From contig JAHDXH010000003.1 of NCBI GenBank assembly GCA_023382875.1, forward strand, positions 7,608-71,607: a DNA stretch of 64,000 nt, in the 5' to 3' direction. How positions within the stretch are numbered: the stretch's first letter is position 1; the number at the start of each line of letters is the position of its first letter. This document shows positions 29,968-56,450 of this stretch, piece by piece. The DNA comes from Patescibacteria group bacterium. Lineage in GTDB: Bacteria > Patescibacteriota > Microgenomatia > UBA1400 > PJMF01. The notes below the pieces were generated by a model, which saw only the letters and a list, made by a program, of their open reading frames with translations, was not told the DNA's origin and did no database searches. Position numbers and translations under genes: made by a program.

Positions 29968-29978
29968 GTTTAATAATT

Positions 29979-30521
29979 ATGAAAACAAAAAACTCAGTTA
30001 TAAATGTCGCCAGATCAGGTTTTACCTTGGTTGAGATTTTGATTGTCATTGTGATTGTGGGAATTCTGGCTACCATAGGCTTTGGTAGTTTTCAGTCATC
30101 TCAGTTGAAAAGCCGTGATGCTTCAAGAAAAAGTGATTTGAGGCAAATTGCTAGTGCTTTGGAAACTTATTATAATGATCACGGCCAATATCCAACTGAC
30201 AGCGGTGGCTCTATTAATGGTTGTAATGGTGGTTCTCCTTGTACTTGGGGAGAGCCTTTTATCGACGATAAAGGGACTGTTTATATGATCAAATTGCCAT
30301 TTGATCCACAAGAGAGTCGCAACTATTACTATTCTAGTGATGGTACTTCTTTCCAGATTTATGCTGGTTTGGAGAATGATTTAGACAAAGATATTCCTTT
30401 GTCTGGCGGCGTTCCCTCTGAATATGATGGCTTGCTTTGTGGAGCAGAAAAAGTTTGTAATTATGGTATTGCTAGTCCAAATACTACTCCGGAAGAGGGT
30501 AGAACTTTGGTGGCAATGTAG
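29979..30521 (+). CDS. Type IV pilin / pseudopilin-like protein
   Basis: SGFTLVEILIVIVIVGILA class III signal, then SRDASRKSDLRQIASALETYYNDHGQYP. Start reassigned to the ATG at 29979 (MKTKN). Confidence 0.7.
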   Translation: MKTKNSVINVARSGFTLVEILIVIVIVGILATIGFGSFQSSQLKSRDASRKSDLRQIASALETYYNDHGQYPTDSGGSINGCNGGSPCTWGEPFIDDKGTVYMIKLPFDPQESRNYYYSSDGTSFQIYAGLENDLDKDIPLSGGVPSEYDGLLCGAEKVCNYGIASPNTTPEEGRTLVAM

Positions 30522-30538
30522 AATTATTTAGGCAAAAT

Positions 30539-31000
30539 ATGCAAAAACAACAAGGCTTTTCTTTAATTGAGTTGCTGGTGGTGATTTCCATCATTGGTGC
30601 TTTGGCTGCGTTGTTGGTTACTAATCTAGTTGGTGTCCGTGGTCGTGCCGCTGATGCTTCTTTGAAAAACGATTTAAATCAGCTTAAGACGTCACTTCGT
30701 CTTTATTACAACGACTACCAACAATATCCAGATTCATCTGGTGGTAGTATGCTTGGTTGTGGTTCTTCTGGAACTACAGCCTGTACTCCAGGCGAAGAAT
30801 TTTCCGCCGGCTCTGGACCAACAGTTTATATGCAAAAGTTGCCAAAATCTTTCACTTACAATGTGAGCGGTGATAATGAAAACTTTGTTTTGGCAGTTTC
30901 CTTGAGTAATCTTTCTGATGCTGATATTGCAGCTAGTGCTTCTCGCTGCGGTCAAACAGCTACTGCTAGCTCCTCAGCCTATTATGTTTGTAATAATTAA
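30539..31000 (+). CDS. Type IV pilin / pseudopilin-like protein
   Basis: QGFSLIELLVVISIIGALAA class III signal, then the ADASLKNDLNQLKTSLRLYYNDYQQYP motif. Confidence 0.7.
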   Translation: MQKQQGFSLIELLVVISIIGALAALLVTNLVGVRGRAADASLKNDLNQLKTSLRLYYNDYQQYPDSSGGSMLGCGSSGTTACTPGEEFSAGSGPTVYMQKLPKSFTYNVSGDNENFVLAVSLSNLSDADIAASASRCGQTATASSSAYYVCNN

Positions 31001-43200: not shown

Positions 43201-46200
43201 AGTTGAGTTAGGTAAACATCGCCATCATTTTCAATTTTGAATTTAGTGACGCCAGAAGCAGAAGCAGCAAAGATATCTTGATTTTCAGTTTGGTTAATAA
43301 TTACGGCAGCTTTGCCTCTAGTTTCTGATCCGGCTAGAGAGATTTTGGCTGAGTTGGTAGCAATGTTACCAAGGTTAATTTCATAGCTTGTTTGAGTAGG
43401 TGAAAGGGCACCGCTATTAAGCTGCCAATAGCTGGCGCCGCCTGTCATGCTGACCCAAGTTGTACCGTTATAGTAGTAAACGCCATCATTGGTAGTGTTG
43501 TAATAGAGAGCGCCATCGCCCATAGCAGTTGGATCGCCAGCGAAGTTGGCTAGTTGTAGTTGACCGCCTAGTTTTAATGATCCAGATAGAGTGGCGTTGC
43601 CACCATAATCAATAGCAAAGCGAGTAATACCAGATGATGATGCAGTGAAGATATCTTGATTTTCAGTTTGGTTAATGATGACAGCAGCTTTGCCGCGATC
43701 CAAAGCACCAGCTAAGGAAACTTTAGCTGAGGCGGTAGAAATACTACCAATATTGACGTCAGCGCCAGTTGAAAAAGGTGAAATGGTGCCATTATTGAGT
43801 TGCCAGTAAGCGTTACTAGCCAGACCAATATCGGTCCAGTTACCACCAGAGAATTTATATTGTAAAGTGCCAGCGTTGTCTCTGAAACCGTAGCCACCTG
43901 TGCCATCAGTGTCACCCCAATTAAGGTAGGAGTTGGCAGCTAAATTAATGTTACCATCAACTTCTAAGATCCCTTCCACAAATAAATCATTATCGTCATT
44001 GGTAATATCACCAGCGTTGGTGTTGGAAATTGAGTTGTAGTTGGCACCAGTCAAACCACCAATGTTGAAGACATTATTGTTGGCAAAATTGATTTGACCG
44101 CCAAAAGAATCAAATTGGAGGTCGCCAGAAACATTGCTGATGGTGTGACCAACCCCACCCACAGCAACGATGTTGCCACTTGAGTTGACTTGGAAAAGGT
44201 CGCCAGCTCCAACAGAGAGAAGGGAAGTTGGACTAGAATCGCCAATACCAACATTGCCGTTATTGGCAATGACAAATCTAGTTGTGCCAGAGGCAGAGGC
44301 AGTAAAGATGTCTTGATTTTCAGTTTGGTTAACGATCAATGCAGACATACCTCTGGTTAAGGAGCTAGCAATGGAAACTTTGGCAGAGCTGGTAGCAGTT
44401 GCACCAAAGTTGACGTCGGTGGTTAAGGAGAATGGACTAAGTACACCATCGTTCAACTGCCAGTAACCACCACTACCTCCTGAACTAAAATCAAGCCAAG
44501 AGCCGCTGCTGTTTTTGAATTGTAAAATACCGGCGTTGTCTCTAATACCATAACCTGATGAACCTAAAACTGTGCCCCAGTTAATATAGTTGCCAGTAGC
44601 CAAACCAATATCGCCGGTCACACCTAGGTTGCCATCATAATCAATGGTAAATTTGGTTGCACCAGAGGCAGAGGCAGTAAAGATGTCTTGATTTTCAGTT
44701 TGGTTAACGATCAAAGCAGACATACCACGATTTAAAGCACCGGAGATAGAAACTTTAGCTGAAGTGGTGGCAGTGTCACCGATGTTTAAACCTAGGCCAA
44801 GATAACTTGGGGAAAGCATACCATCGGTTAGTTGCCAAAAGTCACCGGCAGTGTTGGAACCCCAAATCAAGTTGCCAGAGCCATCATTCATTAAGACTGT
44901 GCCAGTGGCTCCTGCAGCATCTGGAAGGGTATAGATAATATCGGTACTAAGCAGGGATGGAGCTCTGAATCCAGTGTAGTTAGTTCCATTTGAAGCACTT
45001 TCTCTTAATCTTAAAGAGGCTTGATCGCCAACGATGATATTACTACTCGTGAGCAGTTCGCCGATATTTCCTGTTGATGCTAATGAGCCAACTGCAAAAG
45101 ATCCATCAACTCTAAGGTCATCACTGAACCTTAAATCGGCGGTGTCATCGTAGAAATATCTATTATTGGTACCAATATATAATCGGTCATTAATCTCAAT
45201 GCCAAGACCAGCGGTAGAGAATAAAACTGGATTATTGCCGTCTAAATCAATCGAAAGATCGGTGTTGATACCACCATTTCCACCCCCAAAAACTAAGAAA
45301 TCATCGGTTGAGTTAGAAATGTACTCAGAATTTGCTAGGGTAAGATTGCCATTGTTAGCGATAGTGAACTTAGCAACACCAGATGCTGAGGCAGCAAAGA
45401 TTGGTTGGTTTTCAGTTTGGTTGATGATAGCTGCAGCTTTACCTCTAGTTAATGAGCCTGCTAGAGAGACTTTGGCTGAATCAGTAGAAGTTCCGCCAAT
45501 ATTGACGTCAGCAGTAATATAACGAGGAGTTAGGGTGCCATTAAAGAATTCCCAGTAAGTGTTGCCAGCTACGCCAAAATCAGTCCAAGTGCCACTACTG
45601 TTTTTGAATTGGAGAGTACCAGCGTTGTCTCTAACGCCATAGCCAGAAGTTCCATCTACATCGCCCCAGTTAATATAACCACTAGCATCCAAACCAATAT
45701 TTCCGGCAACATCTAATCTGTGATCTGGAGTAGCATCACCCAGTCCTACAAATCCATTAGAACCTTCAATAAATAAGGCAGCTACATCAGTGTCACTTTC
45801 AACTCTAAAGTCAACGTTACCACCTTGTTCATTAAAAACAGCTGCACCAGTATTGCTGAGCCAAATACCGGCACTACTAGTGGAGTTACCACCGATGGCC
45901 AGATCATCACTCCAGTATTGGGTGGGGTGGATGAGGTTGCCTAGTTCTGACCAGAAGGCGTTGCCAGCACTGAAGTTGTAAACATTGTTAATAGCATCAA
46001 CAATTCCTTGTGGAAGGGATGGGTTTAATTGTGTGTCGACTAAACTTAGTGGCAAGTCTGTAACTCGAGCATCACTAAACAAAATGTCAGAGGTAGCCTC
46101 CAAGGACAAAGTACCACCAGAAATAGTAAAGGTTCCAGACACTGATTTTAAAGTTGGATTATTTTCACCAAGAGTAACATTGCCACCAGCGTCCATAACT

Positions 46201-47297
46201 AAAATAGTGTTAGCGGTAGCTGACTGGGTGGAATTGATCGGGAAGCCTTGGACAGTTTCTGAATTAACGGCAAAAGGAACAGTTCTGATTGGTTGGCGAG
46301 GAGTAAGAGTTTCACTATCAACGATCACTTCAAGCCACAAAGCTGAGTTCTCGGTGAAGACAGCATCATCAATCTCGATGCCACAGTCATCGCCAATGCC
46401 AACATTAAAGATACCATCTTGATCTGGAGTCACACTACAAGAGCCAGTTTGGTACTTACAATCAGTTGTCCCATCGCAAGAGCCTTCTGTGCCGCCAGTT
46501 AATTGGTCCCAAATTTTGAATTCCATTGGGGTAGGAATGGTAACAGGATTTTGAGCAGTGTCAGTCAAGCGACCTTGGAATGATAAAACGCGGTTAGCTC
46601 TAGTTGGAGTAGAGGGGTAAGCAAAAGAAACAGGTGTTTCTTTGACCAACTGGTTATAACCAAGAAAACCAAGTCCAATGAAGAACAAGATCATTAAACC
46701 AAGGTTTAAATATGGCAAAATTAAGTTGGTGGTAGAAGCAAAACTCTTTTTACTGTCGGGTTTTACTTGTGCTGCGAATTGACTGACTAACTTGGTGTCA
46801 GTAATTTTAGCGCTGCTATCTTGCTTATCTTGCTTGGCTAATTGGTCGATTTTGTTGGAATTTTTATTTTTGAAGATATTGAATAAGCCCCTTTTGGTTT
46901 CTTGAGCTTTGTTTGGGTCAACTTTGGTATTTAAAAGCGAATTAATACTGGTTTGATCCATCCAGGAGATATCTTGATCAATCAAACCTTGGTCTTCACA
47001 CCATAAAGCGAATTGAGTGATTGAGGCAATTTTTCTAGTGACGCTCGAATCTTTCAAACCCTTGCCATGTTGAGCTAAGACAAAATCTTTGAGTGATTGG
47101 CGAGTGAATAAATCTTCAAGTTCTTCAATTTCCATGAACTTGTAAAACTGACGAATGTCAGAACGGTAGTTTCTGATGGTAGCGCTAGAACAGTGCTGAC
47201 TGCTTAGGGCCGTCAAAAAATTAATCAAACTTGCTTCAATTTGAGGTGAAGTGAAGTTGCTTTCAACGCTGGTATTAATTTGACTTTGGGCAGTCAT
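31290..47297 (-). CDS. Giant (5335 aa) repeat-rich cell-surface protein with N-terminal cytoplasmic tyrosine-recombinase SAM-like (core-binding-like) domain and single TM helix
   Basis: Uninterrupted 16-kb ORF. Residues 20-105 (FLTALSSQHCSSATIRNYRSDIRQFYKFM...ITQFALWCEDQGL) resemble the phage-integrase/XerD N-terminal domain. A TM helix lies at about aa 192-213, followed by about 5100 aa of Gly/Thr/Ser/Asn-rich beta-type repeats. Confidence 0.75.
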   Translation of the reverse strand: MTAQSQINTSVESNFTSPQIEASLINFLTALSSQHCSSATIRNYRSDIRQFYKFMEIEELEDLFTRQSLKDFVLAQHGKGLKDSSVTRKIASITQFALWCEDQGLIDQDISWMDQTSINSLLNTKVDPNKAQETKRGLFNIFKNKNSNKIDQLAKQDKQDSSAKITDTKLVSQFAAQVKPDSKKSFASTTNLILPYLNLGLMILFFIGLGFLGYNQLVKETPVSFAYPSTPTRANRVLSFQGRLTDTAQNPVTIPTPMEFKIWDQLTGGTEGSCDGTTDCKYQTGSCSVTPDQDGIFNVGIGDDCGIEIDDAVFTENSALWLEVIVDSETLTPRQPIRTVPFAVNSETVQGFPINSTQSATANTILVMDAGGNVTLGENNPTLKSVSGTFTISGGTLSLEATSDILFSDARVTDLPLSLVDTQLNPSLPQGIVDAINNVYNFSAGNAFWSELGNLIHPTQYWSDDLAIGGNSTSSAGIWLSNTGAAVFNEQGGNVDFRVESDTDVAALFIEGSNGFVGLGDATPDHRLDVAGNIGLDASGYINWGDVDGTSGYGVRDNAGTLQFKNSSGTWTDFGVAGNTYWEFFNGTLTPRYITADVNIGGTSTDSAKVSLAGSLTRGKAAAIINQTENQPIFAASASGVAKFTIANNGNLTLANSEYISNSTDDFLVFGGGNGGINTDLSIDLDGNNPVLFSTAGLGIEINDRLYIGTNNRYFYDDTADLRFSDDLRVDGSFAVGSLASTGNIGELLTSSNIIVGDQASLRLRESASNGTNYTGFRAPSLLSTDIIYTLPDAAGATGTVLMNDGSGNLIWGSNTAGDFWQLTDGMLSPSYLGLGLNIGDTATTSAKVSISGALNRGMSALIVNQTENQDIFTASASGATKFTIDYDGNLGVTGDIGLATGNYINWGTVLGSSGYGIRDNAGILQFKNSSGSWLDFSSGGSGGYWQLNDGVLSPFSLTTDVNFGATATSSAKVSIASSLTRGMSALIVNQTENQDIFTASASGTTRFVIANNGNVGIGDSSPTSLLSVGAGDLFQVNSSGNIVAVGGVGHTISNVSGDLQFDSFGGQINFANNNVFNIGGLTGANYNSISNTNAGDITNDDNDLFVEGILEVDGNINLAANSYLNWGDTDGTGGYGFRDNAGTLQYKFSGGNWTDIGLASNAYWQLNNGTISPFSTGADVNIGSISTASAKVSLAGALDRGKAAVIINQTENQDIFTASSSGITRFAIDYGGNATLSGSLKLGGQLQLANFAGDPTAMGDGALYYNTTNDGVYYYNGTTWVSMTGGASYWQLNSGALSPTQTSYEINLGNIATNSAKISLAGSETRGKAAVIINQTENQDIFAASASGVTKFKIENDGDVYLTQLLGTTYNPYNNIDFINSGIGINSYLNVKIDLDDDNNDTIENFTINTNGGLTELFRVNANGNTGIGDNTPEAKLDVEGAVTGQALVQINELGNQDIFTASRSGLTRMRIDNDGYVHSQRFVDLANSAYYLDPAATGTSLNAAGDGKLEGGQIYLYNTNTYVSGDGTDLTFKDSHLTSQIALSETGTTQLHAGFTTNSIIAALNELMNISLGDTTNIFLNSLRLQQSDGSLYELFQDGVADEFEGITGVDTNLSTYTYDSVNDWFSRANPTSDVVEDTRQEFLEGAFVNATASATPALELTKTTNTGTGADGDATVSATKNINSDIIAAGRNFADGVAYKVTGIATNAVSTDYAPHGIVAGDEVILINMQGDASNYANVGTYEFLTVSSVSGLNIAFTSSIQSTYGVGGNSNLSGQDIIIQRIPQYNDVTVEFGGIITAGDWDDFLSIPATPIGTAGYQTGLVAFRASGEVLVKVGGQITATGIGYRGGIGAPTNATVAYQGESTTGPGAELHTSAKTEAGGAGGAACNGGDGGGYGTAGTGGTRAGTGCPTAGASGTSTYGDANLSKLYLGSAGGGGGAGYAGAWDKVGGTGGDGGGIVFISANKITSTNGVITSVGLGGASGATGETISSGGGGGGAGGTIYLKGKTVDLQGGVSAIGGSGGTTGGSSYGGVYADLGGFAHGGAGGSGRIKVDAITTIGTTNPTFTAGSLSLYEDYGIFTSDEIQTPNTISFDLIEWSENLNTHGEVQIMTRSGNTANSTDGTWEAWKPIVTNVNEKVIDNMDVQGNWTSYTPFTIVQDVQNEFGFNNETYRTVESGGLDGSVTIEKYIDNGDGHDGSITVSTSKNLNTDIVATGRSYADAVTYSVSVINSSSVTTSATPNGIVAGDEVMLINLQGDTNTTYANTGNYEFAKVSLVSGSILYFETAISNSYGYGSNLNLTGQKVVVQRVPQYYNVTVQSGGVLTANDWNGTSGGLLVFRVAGTLDVQSGGSINMTGKGYRGGAGSASNAVLSYRGESTGGVNDTQTATPTTEGGGGGTLICQGGGGGGYGANGISGNRSGSSCSNYANLGSSYGDANLAKLNLGSGGGGGGGGYGGAWNILGGTGGDGGGIVYISANTITSSAGSVVNNGTDGGAGGAGDTIPAGGGGGGAGGAIYLAGNVVNVSGTITASGGSGGVTNVGSYGSPYTELNGGRSNGGNGGVGRIRVDANRVAGSTTPTYTNGTSLNNYHPFGVFTSSELQATSAAVLDMVSWTESLGNVGEIQVQTRTGNSTDATDGTWEAWKPVVNGTNEVTLDTMNTHTSWTGTNTTVAEGDTTRNIDNYEDEDEATAGNIAKFSTSTEGGYAERDLGAGNEVNLTSYDYISFWVRSDVTSDKLTFSFGEATGDEQSEVVTIDQVNVWQKIYWDISDIAAASRDNVRYLRVTNNDIPAVVYYLDNIKGGRYITSDAGYQIPSTVNNYIQYRVILSTTNVTAAPTLENLTLNYRSSTAHTMVLEGDATRNIDFFEDEDESTVGNITKVSFTAQNGYVQRDLGLGNEVDLSNYDYISFWMKNSESGKKWTISMGENSYVELNQTLDAPANTWQKFYWDLTDISTASRNAIRYFRLTQVDSGSTTVYLDDLAANRYESSPTNGTISSTAANYIQYRVILSTTTNTVTPTVTSVTINYTDQLGHTDNTQSAFDTGSTKFQSESTVGNTIQTSKNRPFVGLGEDGSITVSTSKNINTDAIASGRAYADGASYSISSLNTNVATTSAVPNGIKNGDEVMLINLQGDATNYSNVGTYEFLTVESVNSTRIKFTTNITGTYGVGGNANLTGQKIIVQRVPHYNNVTISYGGTLTANDWNGTSGGLLVFRASGTVNVQGGGYINMNDKGYRGGAGYNVAGEPAFRGESTSLLNDTRTPTPTVQGGGGGGAAGCQGGGGGAYGSTGAVGQRSGANCGNGANNTTAYGDANLGKLHMGSGGGGGGVGYNGAWGILGGTGGDGGGIVYISANTISVEDGVSLDGTLSSNGGGGGAGGTGDTIPAGGGGGGAGGTIYLKADVVSIPVNTTAAAGAGGVTNVGTYGAGWTDLNGGLASGGNGSVGRIKIDANSITGTTSPTYVAGSNSGYYYPYSVFTSNEINTAGASAYDSLTWLANLGTGGMVQFMTRSGSTPDSTDGTWQEWRPLYASNEAVLQTSNTHGDWVGYTPLSKIDDTRAEFDATSVDKFRVSSDTTPSLKLDRYIDDGDGSDGAITLSGSKNINVETIATGRVTYADGIAYKVDASTITGSTLTTTNTPNGIVAGDEVLLINMQGAAGDYADVGNYEFLEVASVVGSALTFKSAVVNSYDGTTPANQKVIIQRIPQYTNVTIQSGGTLTASGWDGLTTTPSGSSGYFTGIVAFRATGTVDVQLNGQINVNYLGYRGGAGYNVAAQPAFRAESTAQLNDTRTATPATEGGGGGGGGYCQGGGGGAYGTAGAVGQRSGTSCANNANNPSAYGDANLNKINLGSGGGGGGVGYNGAWTVLGGAGGNGGGIVFISANAVEVDTHPVSTHGKILANGNGGGAGGTGDTIPAGGGGGGAGGAIYIQANYTDLSGDVTASGGTGGQTNSGSYGAPWTDNGTYSHGGNGGSGRVRVDTNELTTGTATTPTYTAGITNRPLHRYGIYTSDELSTNSAADFKDIEWFENINTSYSDVQVQTRSGNTADSTTGTWEAWRPVTGGVNTVSIENMNTHTNWTGTNVTVADGDVTRNNNFYEDEDEATAGNATKFTSSTVNGYAARDLGAGNEVNLSNYNYVSFWIRADRDNTTFKLGMGEAAATEQEETVIIDAADTWQKVYWDLSDMTAAARDSIRYLRITYLDDTTGSVNFYLDNITGAEVLTEPTGSDITSSAGNYVQYRLIFSTTDTTSTLAAPAVYSVKVNYVTPSAVFYSQEGDVTRNVDGYEDEDEPTATNVTRVVASSTESDGNFVEAIIPSTDLTNYDYLSFWIRTSASATEIPMRIGFGELESDEQQMDFVVETPFQWQKVFFDISDIPAANKNAVTKLRVTNLAPYINDIYIDDFTANRYITNSGYQPNTTANNYVQYRAILTSTDTSSFPSISQVSIAYSGESNVVSEDFEANVLPRRANLISWADLGTGSIDYWASRDNGVTWTPVTMTQQATESGDLKIFSGFADLTSQPEGTTMRWKARINGNAILKSMAMRWESGGGADLAEWYPTTDKTISAAEVVSADTTSTQSGYIVRTAKAYDPAVIGVISTAPGLQIGEKAENTKRVALAGRVPVKIASDSAAILPGDFITSSNVPGRAMKAQKTGYTIGKAVEAWTPGSGKDWVMMFVNLGTYLDGKDIGGVDNASLEEIFGEETQQAINVVNASGSSEIANSPESTISGQINEATNSGEIASNSAQLNPNTATASATLVKESLTSRLKKLADERLDAFLGWTKTEATISGEVLEGTTTNSNFDSITKYQSDLFEAKNKFVTYGETVKNTVGATTINAYGSLNAAGATIYGKLIAGSVEVYGKFTAVSGQFLDLFSNIVRTNNLQTNMISPIADDGSIHVRLGENKDASSSAKPALVIENSAGSSVTSIDKDGNIITLGTIISKENKTSTVTAEVIYTKDASISGDLDASSARIQELEARIAQVEQIKAETAEIVNATVSGTLFAENIDRFSEKVAAAIEEPSLLAKLSGSANQNTVESVESYFASRSAFLADIDTSSPSRLALSDLTLDEDALVIDADAIYVDQYLDVNGSAFVAEKLGIGQSLVLSDSMFVTAGSIDFAPTGVEKPVLALQPSGKGVLSLMGNLFTLDDTGLAQLTGNLEVSGDVKVGGTLLANLMKLNDYNNPFQVQLATKSGDVLGETVQESRFEIVNELGVPVATISAQGKAEFASGLGIGSEELQVASDSGTIESEKTSGTATIKANSNEIVIKSKIVTGKSLIYLTPLGSTNNQVLYVKEIATDNPETPEVESSFKVGFDYPVNNDLKFNWWIVN
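35000..42300 (-). repeat. Four about 500-700-aa tandem modules inside the giant gene, each containing a PNGIVAGDEV..LIN[LM]QGD block, a poly-Gly block (GGGGGGAGG[TA]IYL) and an EW.ENL......Q..TRSGNT..STDGTWEAW block. Modules 2 and 4 are each followed by two Y/FEDEDE-containing beta-sandwich-like domains.
   Basis: Poly-Gly codon blocks (ccaccnccacc on the plus strand) occur at about 35520, 37120, 39760 and 41290. The ttcatcttcatcttc (EDEDE) motif occurs at about 34425, 34985, 38665 and 39215. Confidence 0.7.
42850..45520 (-). repeat. Six tandem about 120-240-aa protein repeats (SAKVS[LI]AG..R[GM].A..I[IV]NQTENQDIF) interleaved with four GYINWGDVDGTSGYG[VIF]RDNAGTLQFK units inside the giant gene
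   Basis: The nucleotide motif gatrtcttgattttcagtttggttaa recurs near 43290, 43660, 44330, 44690 and 45400 on the plus strand. Confidence 0.7.
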
Positions 47298-47892: not shown

Positions 47893-48660
47893 ATGAAAAC
47901 AACAACGAAAAAAATATTGCTTTGGTTGTATTCTGCTGACCCAGCTGAAAATCGTTTAGTCGAAATTGACAATTTGCGCTTGATTTTGCCTGAGTTAAAA
48001 AAGAGTGGCTATAGATCACTCTTAAATTTACTTAAAAACCAACAGTATATTTTTATTGAGTCTATAGTGAGTGACTCAAACACAGCCTTGCCCAGGCAAC
48101 TTAATGTGGTTGGCTTAACAAGCCATGGTAGAGAAGCCTTAAAAGGTCAATTTCCGGTTTTAAAAACTTTAAACGAACCATTTGACGGAGCTTGGACTCT
48201 GATTACCTTTCTAGAGGCTCCTAGTAATGACAAACAATTTAGATACTTAAGACAGTACCTGCTGAATTTTCATTGCGGCCAATTGGCGAGAGGTGCATAT
48301 CTTTACCCAGGATCATTGCCAAATGAGGTTGTTAATACGCTTAATAAGTTGTACGTCGGCAAGGTCTTGGTTACGGGTTTGAAAAGTTGGAATTTTGGCG
48401 ATGAAAGATCAACCATCAGTGAAGTTTTTCATTTGTCTGACCTAAAAAGTGGCTACTCTGGTATTAGCAAAGAAATATATTTAATGCTAAGGAAGTCTGA
48501 TAGACAAAAAAGCATTGAAAATAGAGATAAAAGTGACATTCATTTGGTTTTTGATAGGCTGATGGAATTTCTGACAAACGATTTGGGCTTGCTTCAGTAT
48601 TACTCTCCAGATTCCAAATCTGGCCTTGATCTGTTGTTTCAATTGCAAGACTTATTTTGA
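47893..48660 (+). CDS. Hypothetical protein, possible winged-helix regulator, divergent from giant gene
   Basis: N-terminal ILLWLYSADPAENRLVEIDNLRLILPELKKSGYRSLLNLL resembles a wHTH domain. No other motif recognised. Confidence 0.3.
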   Translation: MKTTTKKILLWLYSADPAENRLVEIDNLRLILPELKKSGYRSLLNLLKNQQYIFIESIVSDSNTALPRQLNVVGLTSHGREALKGQFPVLKTLNEPFDGAWTLITFLEAPSNDKQFRYLRQYLLNFHCGQLARGAYLYPGSLPNEVVNTLNKLYVGKVLVTGLKSWNFGDERSTISEVFHLSDLKSGYSGISKEIYLMLRKSDRQKSIENRDKSDIHLVFDRLMEFLTNDLGLLQYYSPDSKSGLDLLFQLQDLF

Positions 48661-49414: not shown

Positions 49415-51487
49415 TCAATTGAATAACTCGTCGTATAAATCTAGCACTGGTTCCATAACGATTGCGATGTCTTGAGTTTTATTAGTAGCGTCTACCTGGT
49501 AGAAACTCATGGTATTGGCGATTTCTTGCCAGACATAGCCTGTCATTATGACTTCTAAGTGGTAAATTCCTTTGTCTGCGTAAACTTTGAATTGACCAGA
49601 TTTACTGGTGGTCAAGACTGTAACCAACTGGTTAGTATTTGGATCAATAATTCTGACGACGGCATTTTCGAGTGGTTTCTTGTCTTTATCGACCACAATG
49701 CCCGTGATAATAGGCCTTTTGGTTAGCCAAATTAGCTTTTGTAAAACTAATACCAGATAAAAAAGCAGTACAATGCCATTCCAAATTGTAGGGAAGACGG
49801 TAAAAAGGATGGCTGAGATTATAAATAAAGGAATAGTTAGATGCTTGATGATTCTGGTAAATCCAGACAAAAGTACCCTCAACTTGGTTTTGAATGCCGT
49901 TTTTTGTGATTTAACCTTTGGGTCAACGGGGATTAAAAAGAGCTGCTGTTCGTTCTCAGAAGTAACATTAAAGACTTCCCCCAGATAGTAGTCTTTAAAC
50001 TGCATATACGGTGGCCTTTTCTTAGTGGAAGGGAAAGTGTAGTCCTGATGCGACACGACAATCCTATAAAGTCCTGATGCCAATTTAATTCCTCTATAAA
50101 CACCATCTACGTCAGTAACTACAGTTTCTGAGATTTGATTATCTGAATTTTCTGAATATATAGTTAGCAAGGCAAAAGAAACTGGTTGAAAAGTCTCTGA
50201 GTTGAAAACAATTCCTTGTGGTTTGCCAGCAGGCAATAAGCCAAGAGACTGGAGTAATTTTAGGAATAACTGTAGAGATAAACTGCCTCCAAACTGTGCA
50301 CCTACGGCCAAGGCGGTGGCGACTGGTAGAGCAGTGGCGACTACAGCGGCAGAAATCGGTGCTAGTTCTTGAATAGTTTTAATAACTCCCTCAGGAATCA
50401 GCGAAATCAAAACCTTGATTGGTTCGGGTAATCTTTCGCCAATTTCTTGCCAGATTTCGTATATAACCTCTCGAGGTGGAGTATAGGGTATTTCGATGAC
50501 TGGAGGGGTTGGCGAAGCCTCAGTGCTAACGGTTGGTTCAGGGCTTAACCCTGGAGTTGCCGAGGGGGTAGGGCTAATGGTTGGAGATGGGGAAGGTGAA
50601 GCTGGAGGAACCACAATGACTAATTCCTTGACTACAAATTGAACATTATTAAGAACACTAACCAAGCCAGCTGGATCAGTAATAGTAAAGTCCAGGGTAA
50701 TAATGTCGCCTCGATTAAAAATACCCAGTTGCAATGACCAGTTGCCATTGGCATCGATGGTCGTAGTGTAGATCTGAACAGGGTCATTGGGCGAATAAAC
50801 AGTCAAAACGACAGTGCTATTCGGTTCACCTGTCGCTGTAATAAGTGGCTCATTATTTTCAAGTTCAATTGGGCTTGAGGGAATAGTACTCAGGTCTTGA
50901 GCTGAAATGTTGGTGTTAACCTCACCAATGCTGTTAATAATGAAAGTTGGGGCCAAAGTATCAATAATAAAGCTCCATGTCGCCGACTCAGAGTAGTTGT
51001 TGTTGATGTCGTAAACCCTGATTTTCCAGCTATATGTGCCATCACTAATGCCATTCTTCAGTTGAAGGGAGTATTCGCCGTTTAAAGTGTCGTGAGTATA
51101 GATATAGTTACCGTTTTCTTGATTACCAGTTGGTAAGTTGTCATAAAGTAAGTTTCCATTGAGCCAGAGTTGGTATTTGGCTATGCCTCGATCATCGCTT
51201 GATTCCTCCCAGCGAAAAGTCGGAGTACTTGTGGTGACATAGCTATTATTCTCAGGAGAAATGAGGATTGGAGTGGTGGGATTGGTGTTATCTACGACTT
51301 TTAAAGTGACATGAGCGCTTTCGGTGGCAATTGACTGAGCGGCGAAAGTTTGGCTGGGATACGTTTCTTGTCCACCAAAGAAGTTGGGGAATAAGCTGAG
51401 TACAAATATACTTGAGAAAACAAAAACAACGAGTAGTTTTTTTACTCTAGAAATACTGGTAAAAAATTGTTGTTTTGGCACATACAT
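49415..51487 (-). CDS. Secreted/membrane multi-domain surface protein: signal peptide, Ig/Fn3-like domains, Pro/Ser/Thr linker, TM helices, C-terminal carboxypeptidase-regulatory-like (transthyretin-fold) domain
   Basis: N-terminal hydrophobic signal. A PPASPSPSPTISPTPSATPGLSPEPT linker. Two hydrophobic stretches (aa about 380-420 and about 555-600). The C-terminus (VVDKDKKPLENAVVRIIDPNTNQLV...SGQFKV) is typical of the CarboxypepD_reg-like fold. Last gene of the surface operon. Confidence 0.45.
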   Translation of the reverse strand: MYVPKQQFFTSISRVKKLLVVFVFSSIFVLSLFPNFFGGQETYPSQTFAAQSIATESAHVTLKVVDNTNPTTPILISPENNSYVTTSTPTFRWEESSDDRGIAKYQLWLNGNLLYDNLPTGNQENGNYIYTHDTLNGEYSLQLKNGISDGTYSWKIRVYDINNNYSESATWSFIIDTLAPTFIINSIGEVNTNISAQDLSTIPSSPIELENNEPLITATGEPNSTVVLTVYSPNDPVQIYTTTIDANGNWSLQLGIFNRGDIITLDFTITDPAGLVSVLNNVQFVVKELVIVVPPASPSPSPTISPTPSATPGLSPEPTVSTEASPTPPVIEIPYTPPREVIYEIWQEIGERLPEPIKVLISLIPEGVIKTIQELAPISAAVVATALPVATALAVGAQFGGSLSLQLFLKLLQSLGLLPAGKPQGIVFNSETFQPVSFALLTIYSENSDNQISETVVTDVDGVYRGIKLASGLYRIVVSHQDYTFPSTKKRPPYMQFKDYYLGEVFNVTSENEQQLFLIPVDPKVKSQKTAFKTKLRVLLSGFTRIIKHLTIPLFIISAILFTVFPTIWNGIVLLFYLVLVLQKLIWLTKRPIITGIVVDKDKKPLENAVVRIIDPNTNQLVTVLTTSKSGQFKVYADKGIYHLEVIMTGYVWQEIANTMSFYQVDATNKTQDIAIVMEPVLDLYDELFN

Positions 51488-51502
51488 TAACTACTTTTGC
51501 CA

Positions 51503-52576
51503 TCATTCATCAAACTTACTCAATCTGTCTTGCTCGAGTTTGGCAATTTTTTCTTCAAGCATCTGCATGCGTTGCTTTTCGGCGTCCTTTTTATGAAGTA
51601 AGTGTCGGCGCACAGCAATGAAGATGACGACTAAGGTGAGGATAACGACTAATCCAGCGATAACAAGAGTAATTGGGAGAAGCCAGAATGTCGTATTTAC
51701 GATTGCAACTTGTCCGCCAGTGCCGTAGGACATGATTAATTTGGCTTTATAAAAACCGCTACCCCAAACAGCATCCCATTGACCAGTGAAAGTTCTCGAG
51801 ACCATAGGGAAGACATTTTTTGATTCAATGGCAATGGTATCAACCTTCATTCCTAGAAGATTATAGATTTCGATGCTAATCTCCGGTTTGATATGAATAT
51901 CAGATTGGTTATCAACCATGAATGAGAAAGGCACTGGTCCATATTCTGTAAAACGAGGCATGGTGAAGTCACGGACAAAAGCTTCTTCGTTGATTGGTCC
52001 ATCAACAACCACATAGAGTAGAGTGCCAACGCGTTGAGAGATGATTGAGGAAGCGCTATCTTGGAATTTTTCGCCATTTAGGCCAACAGGTTTGTGGGTA
52101 ATCATGGCGTAGTGGCCACCTGGAAGCGCATCGGCTGGAACATCAATGATAACGTTGATGATGCCTGTTTGTCTTGGTTGGAGAACTTGGAAATCTGGGG
52201 CGAGAACGAGCCAGTTTTTAAGACTCCAGCGATAATCGACTTCTTCAGTTACTGCTACTGGGGTTTCACCATCATCACCAATCACAAAGTCATCAATAGC
52301 AGTATTAATGGTGAAGGCCTTATTGGAATTGTTACGAACTTTGACTGCCGTTTGGAGTTTTTTTCCTGGAGTACCCTTAAGACTTAAGTCATCACCTAAG
52401 CGTGGTGGCATGGCTGTTAGAGTAATGGATTCGTCAGTGACAGGTGCTTGGGTATTAGTATTTTGGGCAGAATCAGTATTTGGTTGTTCTTGAGCTGCCG
52501 CTTGAGCGAAAATTGTCGGCGCAAAAATACCAGTAAGAATGGCAAATAAACTTAGGGCAGTAATTAGTTTTCTCAT
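51503..52576 (-). CDS. DUF916-like cell-surface protein with C-terminal TM anchor (CscA-like)
   Basis: Signal peptide, then ITLTAMPPRLGDDLSLKGTPGKKLQTAVKVRNNSNKAFTINTAIDDFVIGDDGE. This resembles the DUF916 N-terminal pattern (F.V.P..P.NQ....YFDL.V.PG..Q.L.V.L.N.S.K). A C-terminal TM helix and a charged cytoplasmic tail follow. Confidence 0.45.
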   Translation of the reverse strand: MRKLITALSLFAILTGIFAPTIFAQAAAQEQPNTDSAQNTNTQAPVTDESITLTAMPPRLGDDLSLKGTPGKKLQTAVKVRNNSNKAFTINTAIDDFVIGDDGETPVAVTEEVDYRWSLKNWLVLAPDFQVLQPRQTGIINVIIDVPADALPGGHYAMITHKPVGLNGEKFQDSASSIISQRVGTLLYVVVDGPINEEAFVRDFTMPRFTEYGPVPFSFMVDNQSDIHIKPEISIEIYNLLGMKVDTIAIESKNVFPMVSRTFTGQWDAVWGSGFYKAKLIMSYGTGGQVAIVNTTFWLLPITLVIAGLVVILTLVVIFIAVRRHLLHKKDAEKQRMQMLEEKIAKLEQDRLSKFDE

Positions 52577-52581
52577 GTTAT

Positions 52582-54036
52582 TTAGAATGTGGCAGTGGCT
52601 GTATAGGTGACATAGTTTTCGTAGTCACCAGCAGCTGTGGTCACATTGGGCAGCACTCTATAACAGACATTAATATTTTCGTTGTCAGCGACAGTGGTAG
52701 AGGAGAAAATCATTTGTGCTGCTTGTGAGTCTTCAGCATCGGCAAATTGGCGTGCACAGTAGGTGCCGCCGGCACAGTTGCCTGTAGTTGTGTTGTAGTT
52801 AAAAGGAATGGTGTTGGCATCGCCATTGTGAATGGAGAAGGCAAAGCCTTTGGTAGAAAGAGAATCCCAATTATCAAAAGCAGTGTGACTCATGACCGCG
52901 TCATCACCAGCAGAGTCTCGAATACAGCTTGTTCCAGTGTTATCACCGGTACAAGTAGCTCCGTTGAGTCCAAGCTGATCATTTTCGATGGCTGTCACCG
53001 CATAGCCGTTTACCGCGTTGGTGGTAACGGTTAATGTTTGCGCAGCATCGTTAAAAGCACCGATGGAAACTTCACCAAATGGCACGGCGGCGGCAGAAGT
53101 AGTCACGTCGGTGGTAATACCGCAGGTGCTGGTGCCTGAGTTGACGCCGGCAATAGTGAAGGAAATGGTTGGTGGAACATAGGCGGAAATTTTAACGGCT
53201 TCAATGACGCCAACGGCGACTGAAGTGTAGTCGTCAACATTAAATCCTGAATCAAGCTGTTGGATGACAATGTTTTGAGTATCGGCCGTACCTGTCACGT
53301 GACCTGATTCTGGGGCAGGGTTGATGATGTTGCTGATAATAATTGCACCTTGGCTTGTTCCGTTAAATTGAGTGCCAACACCACCTGTGCCTGAATAGGC
53401 ACATTCATATGAATGGTACTGAGTGCTACCAATAGTGATTGCTGAGGCGGTAGCTGTTCCAGCAACAAAGTCATAGCCAGAGAGGTCTCCTGGACAGGTA
53501 ACTGTTGGAGCAGAAGAACCAAAGTCATAAAGGTCTGAGTCTGGAATTCCATCGGCAGCATCAGTATCGCTAGCAAGAGAAGGAACTAAGATGCGGAAAC
53601 GGCCATTGTTGATAGCGGTGGCAGTGGTAAAGCGAACAGTAAGACTGGCTGATTGGGTAGAGATGACCTCGTCATCTAAATCAGCATCCCCAGCTGCTAA
53701 AGTACTGCCAATGGTAAAGGCGCTAGTTGGGTTGGTGGTGCTAACTGTATAAACGCCCAGTGAATCGGCATTGCCAATGGCAACACCGTCTCCATTTTGA
53801 AGTTGAGCAGTAGAGAGTGATGGCTGGCCTGAGGAAGTGTTAATTGTAACTTGAGAAGTTCCGGCAACGTTATTGCCATCTAGGGTGCCACGAAAAGAAA
53901 GTCTGGGATTAGACAAAGTTACTGAGACACTGGTAAGACTAGCCGATTTGACGCTATTCAATAAACTAGCACCCAAAAAAATTGCGGGTACCAAAAAAAC
54001 CGCCAAAATCCGCTTATTGCTGAACTTGTTACTCAT
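52582..54036 (-). CDS. Secreted Gly/Thr/Ser-rich surface protein with WxL-like (W to Y) C-terminal motif
   Basis: Signal peptide. Ends with TAAGDYENYVTYTATATF, closely paralleling the C-terminus of the 55028 protein and the WxL-domain terminal G.Y....TWTL pattern. Confidence 0.4.
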   Translation of the reverse strand: MSNKFSNKRILAVFLVPAIFLGASLLNSVKSASLTSVSVTLSNPRLSFRGTLDGNNVAGTSQVTINTSSGQPSLSTAQLQNGDGVAIGNADSLGVYTVSTTNPTSAFTIGSTLAAGDADLDDEVISTQSASLTVRFTTATAINNGRFRILVPSLASDTDAADGIPDSDLYDFGSSAPTVTCPGDLSGYDFVAGTATASAITIGSTQYHSYECAYSGTGGVGTQFNGTSQGAIIISNIINPAPESGHVTGTADTQNIVIQQLDSGFNVDDYTSVAVGVIEAVKISAYVPPTISFTIAGVNSGTSTCGITTDVTTSAAAVPFGEVSIGAFNDAAQTLTVTTNAVNGYAVTAIENDQLGLNGATCTGDNTGTSCIRDSAGDDAVMSHTAFDNWDSLSTKGFAFSIHNGDANTIPFNYNTTTGNCAGGTYCARQFADAEDSQAAQMIFSSTTVADNENINVCYRVLPNVTTAAGDYENYVTYTATATF

Positions 54037-55015
54037 TTTTTTCCACCTTTTTCACGCCTTTGGTTTTATCCAATAGGACTCTATATAAAGAATACAGTAG
54101 GTAACCAATTAATGGCAATAGTAATATTGAAAAAGGTAGAGCAAGAATTGTCCTAGACATGGTAACTTTTTCTGCGCCTACTTGAGAGTTTTTATTTAGT
54201 TCAATTTTTATTTTGTATAAGCCGATCAGGAAGGGTTTTTTATATCTAAATTCATTAGAAACAAATTCTTTCTCTCTTAACTCTCTAGAACTTCCGGAAA
54301 GAATCATGTCTGGGTGGATTTCATACTTTGCTAGCTCTTTATTTTGCCAGTTATAAAGAGTAGCACTGCCACTAGCTTGGGTGGCATTTTTGCCAATGTT
54401 TTCTGCCATAGCCCCAAACTTTATGCCCATAAAACTATCAATGGTGGGTAAGGAAGAAATATTTTTTACCCTCAACTCGCCTCGATCAGAATTGTTTCTG
54501 GTAACTAAGACAATTAAGTTGCTGCCGACGGTACCAGTGATCTTAGCCTGGGAGTTGGGGACTTTGGGGTCGATTTGGTTTTTGAAACTGAAGAAAATAG
54601 TCATAGCGTATTCTTCTTCATTGGCATTTTTGGGAATTTCAATGTTGACGGGAACAATCATTTTTTGACGAGGTTCGAGTACAAAATTACTACCAAAGTT
54701 AATTTGTCCATCGTCCAATTTTAAGTAAGGAAAAGTGCCGCTAGATTTGACTACTGGTTGGCCGGTTTTATCATCCGCTTCGAAATCAAGTAGGGTTGGC
54801 GTGACTTCTAAGGCGTTTTCGCCTAAATTCTCGAGTTTAATATCATATTTTCCCACCTCTCCAGGCTTAATGGAAAAGTAATTGACTGGTGGTGAAACCG
54901 ATAGGTCGATGGGAGAGGTAGTAACTGCATTGGCTCCTGAAACAAAAGGTCTAAGCAAAAATAATAGAGCCAAAGTCAGGGCAAAAATAAAGTTTTTTTT
55001 ATGATTAGGTTTCAT
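54029..55015 (-). CDS. DUF916-like cell-surface protein with C-terminal TM anchor (second CscA-like)
   Basis: Signal peptide, then IDLSVSPPVNYFSIKPGEVGKYDIKLENLGENALEVTP (DUF916-like pattern). A C-terminal TM helix and a basic tail follow. Confidence 0.45.
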   Translation of the reverse strand: MKPNHKKNFIFALTLALLFLLRPFVSGANAVTTSPIDLSVSPPVNYFSIKPGEVGKYDIKLENLGENALEVTPTLLDFEADDKTGQPVVKSSGTFPYLKLDDGQINFGSNFVLEPRQKMIVPVNIEIPKNANEEEYAMTIFFSFKNQIDPKVPNSQAKITGTVGSNLIVLVTRNNSDRGELRVKNISSLPTIDSFMGIKFGAMAENIGKNATQASGSATLYNWQNKELAKYEIHPDMILSGSSRELREKEFVSNEFRYKKPFLIGLYKIKIELNKNSQVGAEKVTMSRTILALPFSILLLPLIGYLLYSLYRVLLDKTKGVKKVEKNE

Positions 55016-55027
55016 TTTATTTACGCC

Positions 55028-55780
55028 TTAGTATCCAGGTACAGCAATATAAACTACGTTGGTTTCATAGTCTCCAGCAGCCTGTGATCCGCTGATTCCA
55101 GCTTTATAGGTAACGGTAGCCGTCCTATCCTTGGCAATGTTGTTAGAACTCATTACCACCTGCATTTGATCGGAGGCGCTGTCATCAGCAAAGGGTCTGA
55201 AGTAGGTGCTGTTGATAAAATCAGCAGGAACGTCATCGCCAGACATGTTGTAGCCAAAGCCAGGGATAGAGGTGTTGTTCCAGACCCCAGCGGTGGAAAT
55301 AGTACAAGTGCCACTATTGCAGGCAGTGTCGGCAATATCGGGCGTGCCGTTAATGTGTCTTAAAGGATGTTTTTCATAAGCATAAACGTAATAGCCACCA
55401 GCTCCTTTAGTATTGACAATTAAATCGTGGGTAGCAGTGGCGTGAGAGCCGAGGGCCAATTCTCCAAGCTCGACAGAAACATCGGTAATCCTGAAGGAGA
55501 AAGTATCAATAGTGTAAATATATTGGAAACCGCCGCCAATGACGTAGTTGGAGCTTCCATATTGGCCATACGGACCATTAGCAATCTGGCCGACTGTGTC
55601 GGTGACATTGTAACTAGCACTGCTTTTCTCTCCTGAGGTGACGTTGAAGTTGCCAAAAGTCACGACATAAGACTCTGACTCCAATCTTTCAGAGTAGACA
55701 AGGCCACTAGCGAGAAGCAAAAAACAACCAGCGCTTAGAGAAGCGATGGCGATTTTAGCTGATTTGTTTCTACTCATCAT
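55028..55780 (-). CDS. Secreted surface protein with WxL-like (W to Y) C-terminal motif
   Basis: Signal peptide. Ends with QAAGDYETNVVYIAVPGY, shared with the 52582 protein. Confidence 0.4.
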   Translation of the reverse strand: MMSRNKSAKIAIASLSAGCFLLLASGLVYSERLESESYVVTFGNFNVTSGEKSSASYNVTDTVGQIANGPYGQYGSSNYVIGGGFQYIYTIDTFSFRITDVSVELGELALGSHATATHDLIVNTKGAGGYYVYAYEKHPLRHINGTPDIADTACNSGTCTISTAGVWNNTSIPGFGYNMSGDDVPADFINSTYFRPFADDSASDQMQVVMSSNNIAKDRTATVTYKAGISGSQAAGDYETNVVYIAVPGY

Positions 55781-56450
55781 TGCGGCTCTTTTGCAAAAAT
55801 TTACTAATTTCCATTTGCATGATTAAAATCTGACCCATGATGGCGGAGCGGTTTTTTTCGGCGTTCAAGCTCATGTCTTTGATTTGAACTAGTTTGGGTT
55901 GAATAAAATTGCTTAATAGGTTGACTAGCTGGCGTTGTTCGTTGAGGCTGTTGGTGAGAGCAATTTCTTCACCCCGATTAATTCTTTTTTCTTTTTGCAA
56001 GCCCTCGTATTGATTTTTGGTGAAGAGGAATAAAACAACTAAGACAGGAATAGTAAGGAGTGTGGAGATCAATTGGGTTTGGTTGGAACCACCCAAAGCA
56101 TAGTGGAAAACAGCTAAAAATAAACTGGTGGTAATGCTAGTGCTGGTTTGGGTGGAGAAGACTAAGAAAAATAAATGAATGTAAGTTAAAGGAAAGATTA
56201 CTGAGTCAAGATTGCCTGTATAGCCGATGATCAATAAAAAGGCAAAGGTTGCCAAAATCATCTCAAAAGACTGAGCGGCTGGGGCAATGTGCCAAAGCTT
56301 AGATTTGCTCATGCGTTTGAGGACAAAATATAAGGCAACCGATAGGGCAAAGACTTGCAATGTAAAGTACGACAAAGCTGAGGTATGCAACCACCAATAA
56401 ACAAAGCCAATTGTTATGGCTAATAGAAGTGTCTGAATATGGGCAGACAT
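55770..56450 (-). CDS. Polytopic membrane protein (about 5 TM) with cytoplasmic C-terminal tail, first gene of the surface operon
   Basis: Hydropathy read from the translation. It overlaps the next gene by 11 nt. No recognised motif. Confidence 0.4.
   Translation of the reverse strand: MSAHIQTLLLAITIGFVYWWLHTSALSYFTLQVFALSVALYFVLKRMSKSKLWHIAPAAQSFEMILATFAFLLIIGYTGNLDSVIFPLTYIHLFFLVFSTQTSTSITTSLFLAVFHYALGGSNQTQLISTLLTIPVLVVLFLFTKNQYEGLQKEKRINRGEEIALTNSLNEQRQLVNLLSNFIQPKLVQIKDMSLNAEKNRSAIMGQILIMQMEISKFLQKSRNDE

Follow-up and report, generated by a model that had tools for sequence, protein, structure and literature searches.

A conserved six-gene surface operon of Patescibacteria: a probable divergent Pam-type pilus system with DUF916-like anchored proteins

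We analyzed a six-gene operon in a 64,000-nucleotide stretch of DNA from a Patescibacteria group bacterium (GenBank assembly GCA_023382875.1, contig JAHDXH010000003.1, positions 7,608 to 71,607; hereafter, the window). Six co-directional open reading frames (ORFs) occupy positions 49415-56450 of the window on the minus strand in the order M-A1-B1-A2-B2-S (Table 1), and from M to S the junctions between them are -11, +12, -8, +5 and +15 nt. On two other assemblies, genes called independently encoded the same six products. An earlier note on this DNA, made from the letters alone, had described a tightly spaced minus-strand operon that resembles the Csc (DUF916 plus WxL) cell-surface complex clusters of Lactobacillales, in a genome that otherwise looks like those of the Candidate Phyla Radiation (CPR). 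The operon and its spacing are borne out by the ORF coordinates, the junctions and the independent gene calls; its function we read differently. We consider it a divergent, streamlined Pam-type pilus operon of a Microgenomatia-like CPR bacterium, and assign this reading a probability of about 0.7.

Table 1. Genes of the operon and other features of the window (positions refer to the window; aa, amino acids; TM, transmembrane; Ig, immunoglobulin; ~, approximate residue ranges)
Feature	Position	Strand	Length	Description
M	55770-56450	minus	226 aa	At least 4 TM segments, cytoplasmic C-terminal tail; gene 1 of the operon
A1	55028-55780	minus	250 aa	Signal peptide, N-terminal module ~31-100 (55480-55690), C-terminal Pam-pilin domain ~93-250
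B1	54029-55015	minus	328 aa	Signal peptide, two Ig-like domains, C-terminal TM helix 286-310
A2	52582-54036	minus	484 aa	Signal peptide, N-terminal domain ~30-285, linker, C-terminal Pam-pilin domain ~290-484
B2	51503-52576	minus	357 aa	Signal peptide, DUF916-like Ig domain, second Ig domain, TM helix, coiled tail
S	49415-51487	minus	690 aa	Signal/anchor sequence, three Ig-like domains ~60-290, Pro/Ser/Thr linker, hydrophobic segments, CarboxypepD_reg
PaaX-like putative regulator	47893-48660	plus	255 aa	Convergent with the operon; PaaX_M 23.2 bits (cutoff 24)
Giant surface protein	31290-47297	minus	5,335 aa	N-terminal Phage_int_SAM_1 (33.9 bits), TM segment, huge repeats
Type IV pilin-like genes	29320-31000	plus		Three consecutive small genes

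In a hydropathy scan, an N-terminal signal peptide was the sole hydrophobic feature of A1 and A2, and B1 and B2 each had a signal peptide, a single C-terminal TM helix and a basic tail. The topology read earlier from the sequence (A1 and A2 secreted only, B1 and B2 anchored by one C-terminal helix, M polytopic) was thus confirmed by the scan.

When a genome collection was scanned with the B2 family, 80 loci were found, nearly all of them from Patescibacteria (Pacebacteria, Woesebacteria and Microgenomates); many titles of the metagenome-assembled genomes (MAGs) among them are mislabelled 'Pseudomonadales'. The order M-A1-B1-A2-B2-S was identical in about 65 of the 80, i.e., in every locus with sufficient flanking sequence. 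An orthologue of M was present at the equivalent position in 63 loci, and S was the last gene throughout the conserved loci. Synteny in related genomes was one of the checks that the earlier note had named, and because the gene order is kept in these ~65 loci, the operon is genuine and strongly conserved, far beyond chance. A CPR origin was confirmed as well: the exact B2 protein occurs in a Patescibacteria MAG and its relatives in Pacebacteria, Woesebacteria and Microgenomates. In five loci (L024, L030, L046, L051 and L080), inserts of 0.8-1.7 kb separate B1 and A2; the extra ORFs in these inserts proved unrelated to pilins or chaperones.

The Pam pilus was described in a 2026 preprint (bioRxiv 10.64898/2026.03.03.709456) in Candidatus Mycosynbacter amalyticus (Saccharimonadia), an ultrasmall CPR parasite. 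Two filaments of this organism were solved by cryo-electron microscopy (cryo-EM); PamA and PamB are their subunits, joined by donor-strand exchange. As further components, the authors propose PamT as tip pilin, PamC and PamD as membrane-anchored chaperones resembling PapD/FimC, and PamR as a fibronectin type III (FnIII) anchor. PamC and PamD are two-domain chaperones bearing a C-terminal TM helix, and in AlphaFold 3 (AF3) models their strands sit in the pilin groove. PamR is RbmA-like and has two FnIII domains, a donor strand at its N-terminus and a TM helix at its C-terminus. PamA and PamB contain paired cysteines, and Ser356 of PamA is post-translationally modified. The same work notes that CPR bacteria lack an outer membrane, that pam operons adjoin ATP synthase genes and a gene for a 'tail fibre-like protein', and that very distant PamA homologues occur in Microgenomatia. 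Two NCBIfam models, NF058579 ('CPR-type pilus protein PamT') and NF058581 ('CPR_Pam_pilin_C'), derive from this preprint.

A1 and A2 both terminate in AAGDYE[TN].V.Y.A. This shared motif, pointed out in the earlier note, is part of a homologous C-terminal domain of ~165 residues (30% identity, E 1e-12; hhalign 99.7%, E 2e-25). Pfam detected no domain in either protein. Among the NCBIfam models, A1 matched NF058581 with an E-value of 5.4e-8 (33 bits; curated cutoff 55) and NF058579 with an E-value of 1.9e-6 (27.4 bits; equivalog cutoff 240), the latter end to end, with residues 14-250 aligned to positions 8-241 of 241; the Pam-model score of A2 was 7.7 bits. Orthologues gave a more consistent signal: nearly all of those of A1 matched NF058581 (34/35) and about half matched PamT (18/35), and 23 of 35 A2 orthologues matched NF058581 (best E 4.8e-8). 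Among 122 library representatives drawn from an exhaustive search of 1.84 billion proteins, 100 matched NF058581 and 86 the PamT model, with best E-values of 1.2e-16 and 7.8e-12 that fall far short of equivalog level. A scan of these representatives for a bona fide, above-cutoff PamT bridging the families found none in the top 150. Because all Pam-model scores lie below the curated cutoffs, A1 and A2 are, as judged from sequence, best regarded as a divergent sister subfamily of Pam pilins rather than equivalogs. This subfamily is large: A1-type pilins form 1,276 representative clusters at 50% identity, nearly all labelled 'hypothetical'.

Structure prediction was based on an alignment built from protein-search matches. 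The AlphaFold2 (AF2) model of A1 contains a confident C-terminal beta-sandwich (pLDDT ~85). The solved structures nearest to it were overwhelmingly donor-strand subunits, with modest scores (CfaE/B, CS20, PapG, FimA/G/I, PapF/H, CupE, EcpD, an archaeal bundling pilin and cannulae). Sequence searches of the PDB with A1, A2 and the pilin profile gave no match, and neither a PamA/B nor a WxL entry was found. Two cysteines of A1, Cys154 and Cys159, are invariant, and A2 has 8 cysteines; such paired and invariant cysteines are shared with PamA/B and favour the identification as pilins. A2 also carries ~255 extra N-terminal residues ahead of the shared domain, joined to it by a conserved linker, GVIEAVKISAYV.

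The most conserved part of A1 is its N-terminal module. It is rich in Gly and aromatic residues, contains the pattern FGNFN...GPYGxYG...GFQYIY with many invariant residues across 68 orthologues, and is disordered in the AF2 model (pLDDT ~30); no counterpart was found in A2 or S. The module probably needs a partner in order to fold; it may serve in binding specifically at the tip or be a stretch whose folding occurs only within a complex. We propose A1 as the tip subunit, similar to PamT, and A2 as the major shaft subunit, similar to PamA/B. A role of the PamT-like module in a tip adhesin is supported by a 2,559-aa surface protein (P0389) that terminates in a complete PamT-like module; it is a fusion of an adhesin with a pilin domain, analogous to FimH/PapG and 'large WxL' proteins. 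Another protein (P0418), which seemed to contain 24 'repeats' of the A1 N-terminal motif, was rejected as a low-complexity artefact. A two-motif regular expression matched 59 of 147 A-family sequences and none of 2110 other ORFs; it was built post hoc from the same sequences and has no independent weight.

The anchored proteins B1 and B2 are paralogous from end to end (BLASTP E 3e-6; hhalign 99.2%, E 1e-19 over 260 columns). The earlier note had seen a DUF916-like N-terminus in both, and this relationship proved remote but consistent. B2 itself scored 13 bits (E 0.11) against PF06030 (DUF916/WxLIP_PGBD), and matches were found for 33 of 36 B2 orthologues (best E 1.6e-7) and 8 of 35 B1 orthologues, all with scores below the gathering score of 27.3. 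When a B-family member was compared by tblastn with 72,556 plasmids, it matched almost only genes annotated as DUF916 or DUF916+DUF3324, in Deinococcus (E 8e-8), Streptomyces, Clavibacter, Enterococcus and Lactobacillus. By hhalign, the B family aligned over both domains with DUF916 proteins of Deinococcus and Clavibacter (95-97%; 96% for B1) and Streptomyces (88-94%), and over the DUF916 domain with a genuine Enterococcus WxLIP (88.6%, E 2.7e-6). These matches indicate that B1 and B2 are true remote homologues of DUF916/WxLIP proteins. The second domain of WxLIP proteins, DUF3324 (WxLIP_HBD, PF11797), which had also been suggested as a profile to try on the anchored proteins, was undetected in B1 and B2.

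The DUF916 homologues include genes well outside Firmicutes, in Deinococcus (L082), Streptomyces (L083) and Clavibacter (L084). Their neighbours are small unannotated secreted proteins, RTX-repeat proteins or glycoside hydrolases, and the small secreted neighbour in Clavibacter terminates in AGDYSSTITLSLFE. The secreted neighbours in Deinococcus and Clavibacter were also considered as intermediates between WxL proteins and pilins, and rejected, being not significant against both profiles.

The model of B2 consists of two beta-sandwich domains and a C-terminal TM helix (304-322 by hydropathy, within a helix spanning 302-356 in the model), with a flexible loop at 161-180 that precedes the last strand of domain 1. 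It superposes over both domains on the chaperones CfaA, SafB, FimC and CsuC. The best structure matches were CfaA (score 12.4), EfmWxLIP1 of E. faecium (9i1y; 11.9 over 187 residues), SafB (11.1), YadV (11.0), FimC (10.8) and CsuC (10.6), i.e., a WxLIP among chaperones of chaperone-usher systems. With the B2 profile, only two entries matched among PDB sequences, both of EfmWxLIP1. These E. faecium WxLIP1 entries (9i25 and 9i1y) were released in January 2026; WxLIP is chain C in 9i25, which may hold partner chains that bear on strand complementation.

No Pam chaperone model of NCBIfam matched the B families, and the identification of B1 and B2 with PamC/D therefore rests on fold and architecture. 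B1 and B2 are thus both PamC/D-like anchored chaperones, by these two features, and relatives of DUF916/WxLIP, by sequence. The alternating order A1-B1-A2-B2 suggests cognate pairs, in which B1 would be the chaperone of A1 and B2, as the proposed PamC/PamD equivalent, that of A2. A fibre could also form without chaperones, as in TasA fibres, archaeal threads and cannulae, with B1 and B2 as structural base or anchor subunits or as adhesins. We consider this improbable: in its two-domain geometry, B2 fits periplasmic pilus chaperones no less well than any other PDB structure, each B paralogue follows a pilin gene, as would suit cognate chaperones, the AF3 models of the preprint put PamC/D strands in the pilin groove, and a candidate for the anchor already exists in S.

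In S, Pfam identified Ig-like domains of the Big_7, Big_13 and Big_6 families and CarboxypepD_reg domains; hydrophobic segments lie at ~378-396 and ~550-589, and conservation is confined to the Ig region. From its position and architecture only, we propose S as the base of the pilus, a terminator and anchor functionally analogous to PamR. The sole Pfam match of M was a weak one to Wzy_C (O-antigen ligase-like; E 0.017). M may be an accessory protein, with an assembly platform or a pilin-modifying factor as candidate roles; that it takes part in pilin modification, given the modified Ser356 of PamA, is pure speculation.

The abundance of Ig-like domains in S and the monoderm nature of CPR bacteria would also suit a sortase-dependent pilus of the Gram-positive type, or unrelated Ig-fold adhesins that are merely clustered. 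Searches of the six operon proteins revealed no LPXTG-like motif and no match to sortase or usher families (Pfam and NCBIfam), and the operon has no sortase gene; the lack of sorting signals effectively refutes a sortase pilus. The specific paralogy of A1 with A2 and B1 with B2, together with the strict synteny in ~65 loci, points to an interacting system rather than chance neighbours. We regard either version as very hard to credit.

The remaining part of the earlier proposal concerns WxL. Csc/WxL clusters code for a small and a large WxL protein, together with a WxLIP that consists of DUF916, DUF3324 and a TM helix (PMC1534035, PMC9772566, PMC10599100). For comparison, we used a classic Enterococcus cluster (large WxL, LPXTG protein, small WxL and WxLIP) and an 18-sequence WxL alignment. 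None of 43 A1/A2-family members matched the WxL domain (PF13731), even at E<=1, and genuine Enterococcus WxL proteins, as a positive control, did match. The C-terminal parallel with WxL that had been noticed is visible by eye in A1 (ANTYTTTIVWNLAEGP in WxL and AGDYETNVVYIAVPGY in A1), as is one in an internal motif (RGSSSKGWTLTAKL and TKGAGGYYVYAYE, respectively), but an hhalign comparison of the pilin C-terminal domain with the WxL profile was not significant (P 0.13-0.26 versus 0.43-0.75 for the reversed control). In full-length and domain-trimmed comparisons, alignment was confined to signal peptides or the last ~20 residues, while positive controls worked. The likeness to a Csc cluster thus stands for DUF916 in the anchored proteins but not for WxL: because WxL and DUF3324 domains were looked for and not found, the operon falls outside the Csc/WxL family in its present definition.

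The operon might still encode a static complex of that type, in which WxLIP-like B1 and B2 hold A1 and A2 non-covalently as a short, non-filamentous platform for adhesion or polysaccharide binding. The homology of B1 and B2 to DUF916/WxLIP and the match to the WxLIP crystal structure fit such a complex, as does the shared layout of a small, a large and an anchored protein (PMC10599100); moreover, the Clavibacter and Streptomyces DUF916 loci sit among glycoside hydrolase and sugar-transport genes. A1 and A2, however, have no detectable WxL but a Pam pilin domain, whose Saccharimonadia members form long filaments as seen by cryo-EM, and no carbohydrate-active genes occur in or beside the operon. 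To our knowledge, CPR bacteria also lack the thick wall-teichoic-acid setting in which WxL binding was studied. A polysaccharide-binding complex, as first proposed, is therefore unlikely, and a pilus is favoured.

The Pam-type reading is preferred because the parts list matches that of Pam (a tip-like pilin, a two-domain pilin, two anchored chaperones and an Ig-domain membrane protein), and because it accounts for the pilin-domain homology, the strict order in ~65 loci and the reported PamA homologues of Microgenomatia. We propose that such a pilus is related to chaperone-usher pili but has no usher, which suits an envelope that lacks an outer membrane. All components would be exported by Sec, as their signal peptides suggest. 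A1 and A2 would emerge with an incomplete Ig-like C-terminal domain and be captured by the anchored B1 and B2 at the outer face of the membrane. Judging by the fold, the AlphaFold models of Pam and the published models of WxLIP with WxL, a strand of B1 or B2 beside the long flexible loop would fill the groove of the pilin. A1 would nucleate the fibre and occupy its tip, with the conserved N-terminal module exposed as a probable host-contact element, and A2, by homology to PamA/PamB, would polymerise by donor-strand exchange into the shaft. S may then terminate growth and anchor the fibre, as proposed for PamR, and M would serve as an accessory membrane protein. The pilus probably mediates contact with host cells together with the neighbouring giant surface protein.

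Several observations weigh against this assignment. Every Pam NCBIfam score is below the curated cutoff, i.e., sequence similarity is sub-threshold only, and B1, B2 and S are likened to PamC/D/R of M. amalyticus by architecture and fold only. The operon has two pilins versus four (PamT and PamA/B/E) and an extra polytopic protein, M. S contains three Ig-like domains, several hydrophobic segments and CarboxypepD_reg, whereas PamR has two FnIII domains and one TM helix, and no conserved N-terminal donor strand is evident in the conservation map of S. No ATP synthase signatures were detected in the 64-kb window, whereas pam operons are reported beside ATP synthase genes. Finally, filaments of M. 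amalyticus have been seen, whereas the present operon is known from genes and single-chain models.

The wider neighbourhood of the operon is conserved as well. A divergent leucyl-tRNA synthetase (LeuRS) gene lies upstream, and a convergent PaaX-like gene followed by the giant surface-protein gene downstream. In 55 loci, a homologue of the PaaX-like gene separates S from the giant gene, and in 49 a homologue of the giant protein is encoded just downstream of the operon. The association of both with the operon is from synteny only: the PaaX-like protein is a possible regulator of the locus, and the giant protein, whose exterior is repetitive and rich in Gly, Thr and Asn, may be the counterpart of the 'tail fibre-like protein' beside pam operons. 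The window also contains three genes with type IV pilin-like N-termini (GFTMIELL, GFTLVEIL and GFSLIELL), which would represent a second, unrelated pilus system near the Pam-like operon. GC content is 0.42-0.47 at positions 32000-46000 (the giant gene) and 50000-54000 (A2/B2), versus 0.34-0.39 elsewhere, and probably reflects the Gly/Ala/Thr-rich composition of surface proteins rather than foreign origin.

Pam-type pilus operons were already known from the 2026 preprint, and the operon described here is therefore known in kind. What is apparently unreported is that chaperones of the PamC/D type belong to the DUF916/WxLIP superfamily, which is also found in Actinomycetota and Deinococcota. Neither WxL nor DUF916 is mentioned in the preprint or its supplement, two WxL papers (PMC9772566, PMC10599100) mention neither chaperones nor pili, and our literature search found no paper linking Pam pili with WxL/DUF916. 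Two features of WxL systems bear on this link. The two WxL motifs are described as forming a buried platform that is covered by a mobile strand, N-terminal and tethered by a long unstructured segment (PMC9772566). In monomer predictions, donor-strand pilins have this appearance. In addition, in published AF2 models a strand of WxLIP completes the WxL beta-sandwich, which amounts to donor-strand complementation in all but name.

Tentatively, CPR Pam pili, Csc/WxL clusters and the unannotated loci with DUF916 in Actinomycetota and Deinococcota may share an ancient ancestor, a donor-strand assembly system that had no usher and belonged to bacteria lacking a classical outer membrane, although we hold such descent to be rather doubtful at present. 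If it is true, the hallmark of the ancestral system would be a membrane-anchored two-Ig chaperone (DUF916/WxLIP, equal to PamC/D). WxL proteins would be pilin-like subunits, the small WxL corresponding to PamT and the large WxL to a fusion of an adhesin with a pilin domain, and their buried 'platform' with its mobile N-terminal strand would be the donor-strand groove. In that case, WxL clusters could give rise to short fibres or strand-exchanged complexes instead of simple peptidoglycan-bound platforms. The mechanism of these clusters in Enterococcus, Listeria and Lactiplantibacillus is a long-standing puzzle, for which strand-complemented assembly offers a testable hypothesis. The operon itself is a concrete, widely conserved candidate for how ultrasmall bacteria of the Microgenomatia type reach and hold their hosts. 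It provides a minimal Pam-type parts list (a pair of pilins, a pair of anchored chaperones and a single anchor) that should be easier to reconstitute than the seven-gene operon of M. amalyticus. For annotation, it reveals that the NCBIfam Pam models miss a whole subfamily at curated cutoffs.

Compared with known systems, the operon shares with Csc/WxL clusters a homologous anchored component (DUF916) of the same fold and the same architecture of two Ig domains plus a C-terminal TM helix. The plan of the secreted proteins is also similar, with a short protein that is approximately the shared domain alone, a long one with this domain at its C-terminus and an anchored partner, and the C-terminal strand motifs run parallel. 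The two differ in that the operon has no detectable PF13731, PF11797 or LPXTG partner gene and belongs to Patescibacteria, whereas those clusters occur in Lactobacillales/Bacillales, usually with an LPXTG protein, and WxL proteins are described as peptidoglycan-bound platforms rather than fibres. From chaperone-usher pili (Pap, Fim, Csu and CFA/I) it differs in having no usher, in a host that has no outer membrane, in chaperones that are membrane-anchored rather than soluble and in pilins that carry an extra N-terminal domain; no Pfam match to PapD_N/C, Fimbrial or SCPU was found in 36 B2, 35 B1 and 43 A1/A2 family members. The pilin C-terminal fold nevertheless resembles the incomplete-Ig pilin domains of these systems and B2 resembles CfaA, SafB, FimC and CsuC, a likeness that the models place at the level of fold only, and the donor-strand mechanism and the logic of tip adhesin plus shaft would be common to both. 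The nearest system is Pam, although S is much larger than PamR and the neighbours here are LeuRS, the PaaX-like gene and the giant surface protein. Both systems occur in CPR hosts and have Sec-exported pilins with the Pam C-terminal truncated-Ig domain, and A1 and A2 would correspond to the PamT-like short pilin and to a two-domain pilin with paired cysteines as in PamA/B. Both systems also combine two paralogous PapD-like chaperones, each with a C-terminal TM helix, with a terminal membrane protein of the Ig/FnIII type, and dispense with usher, sortase and ATPase.

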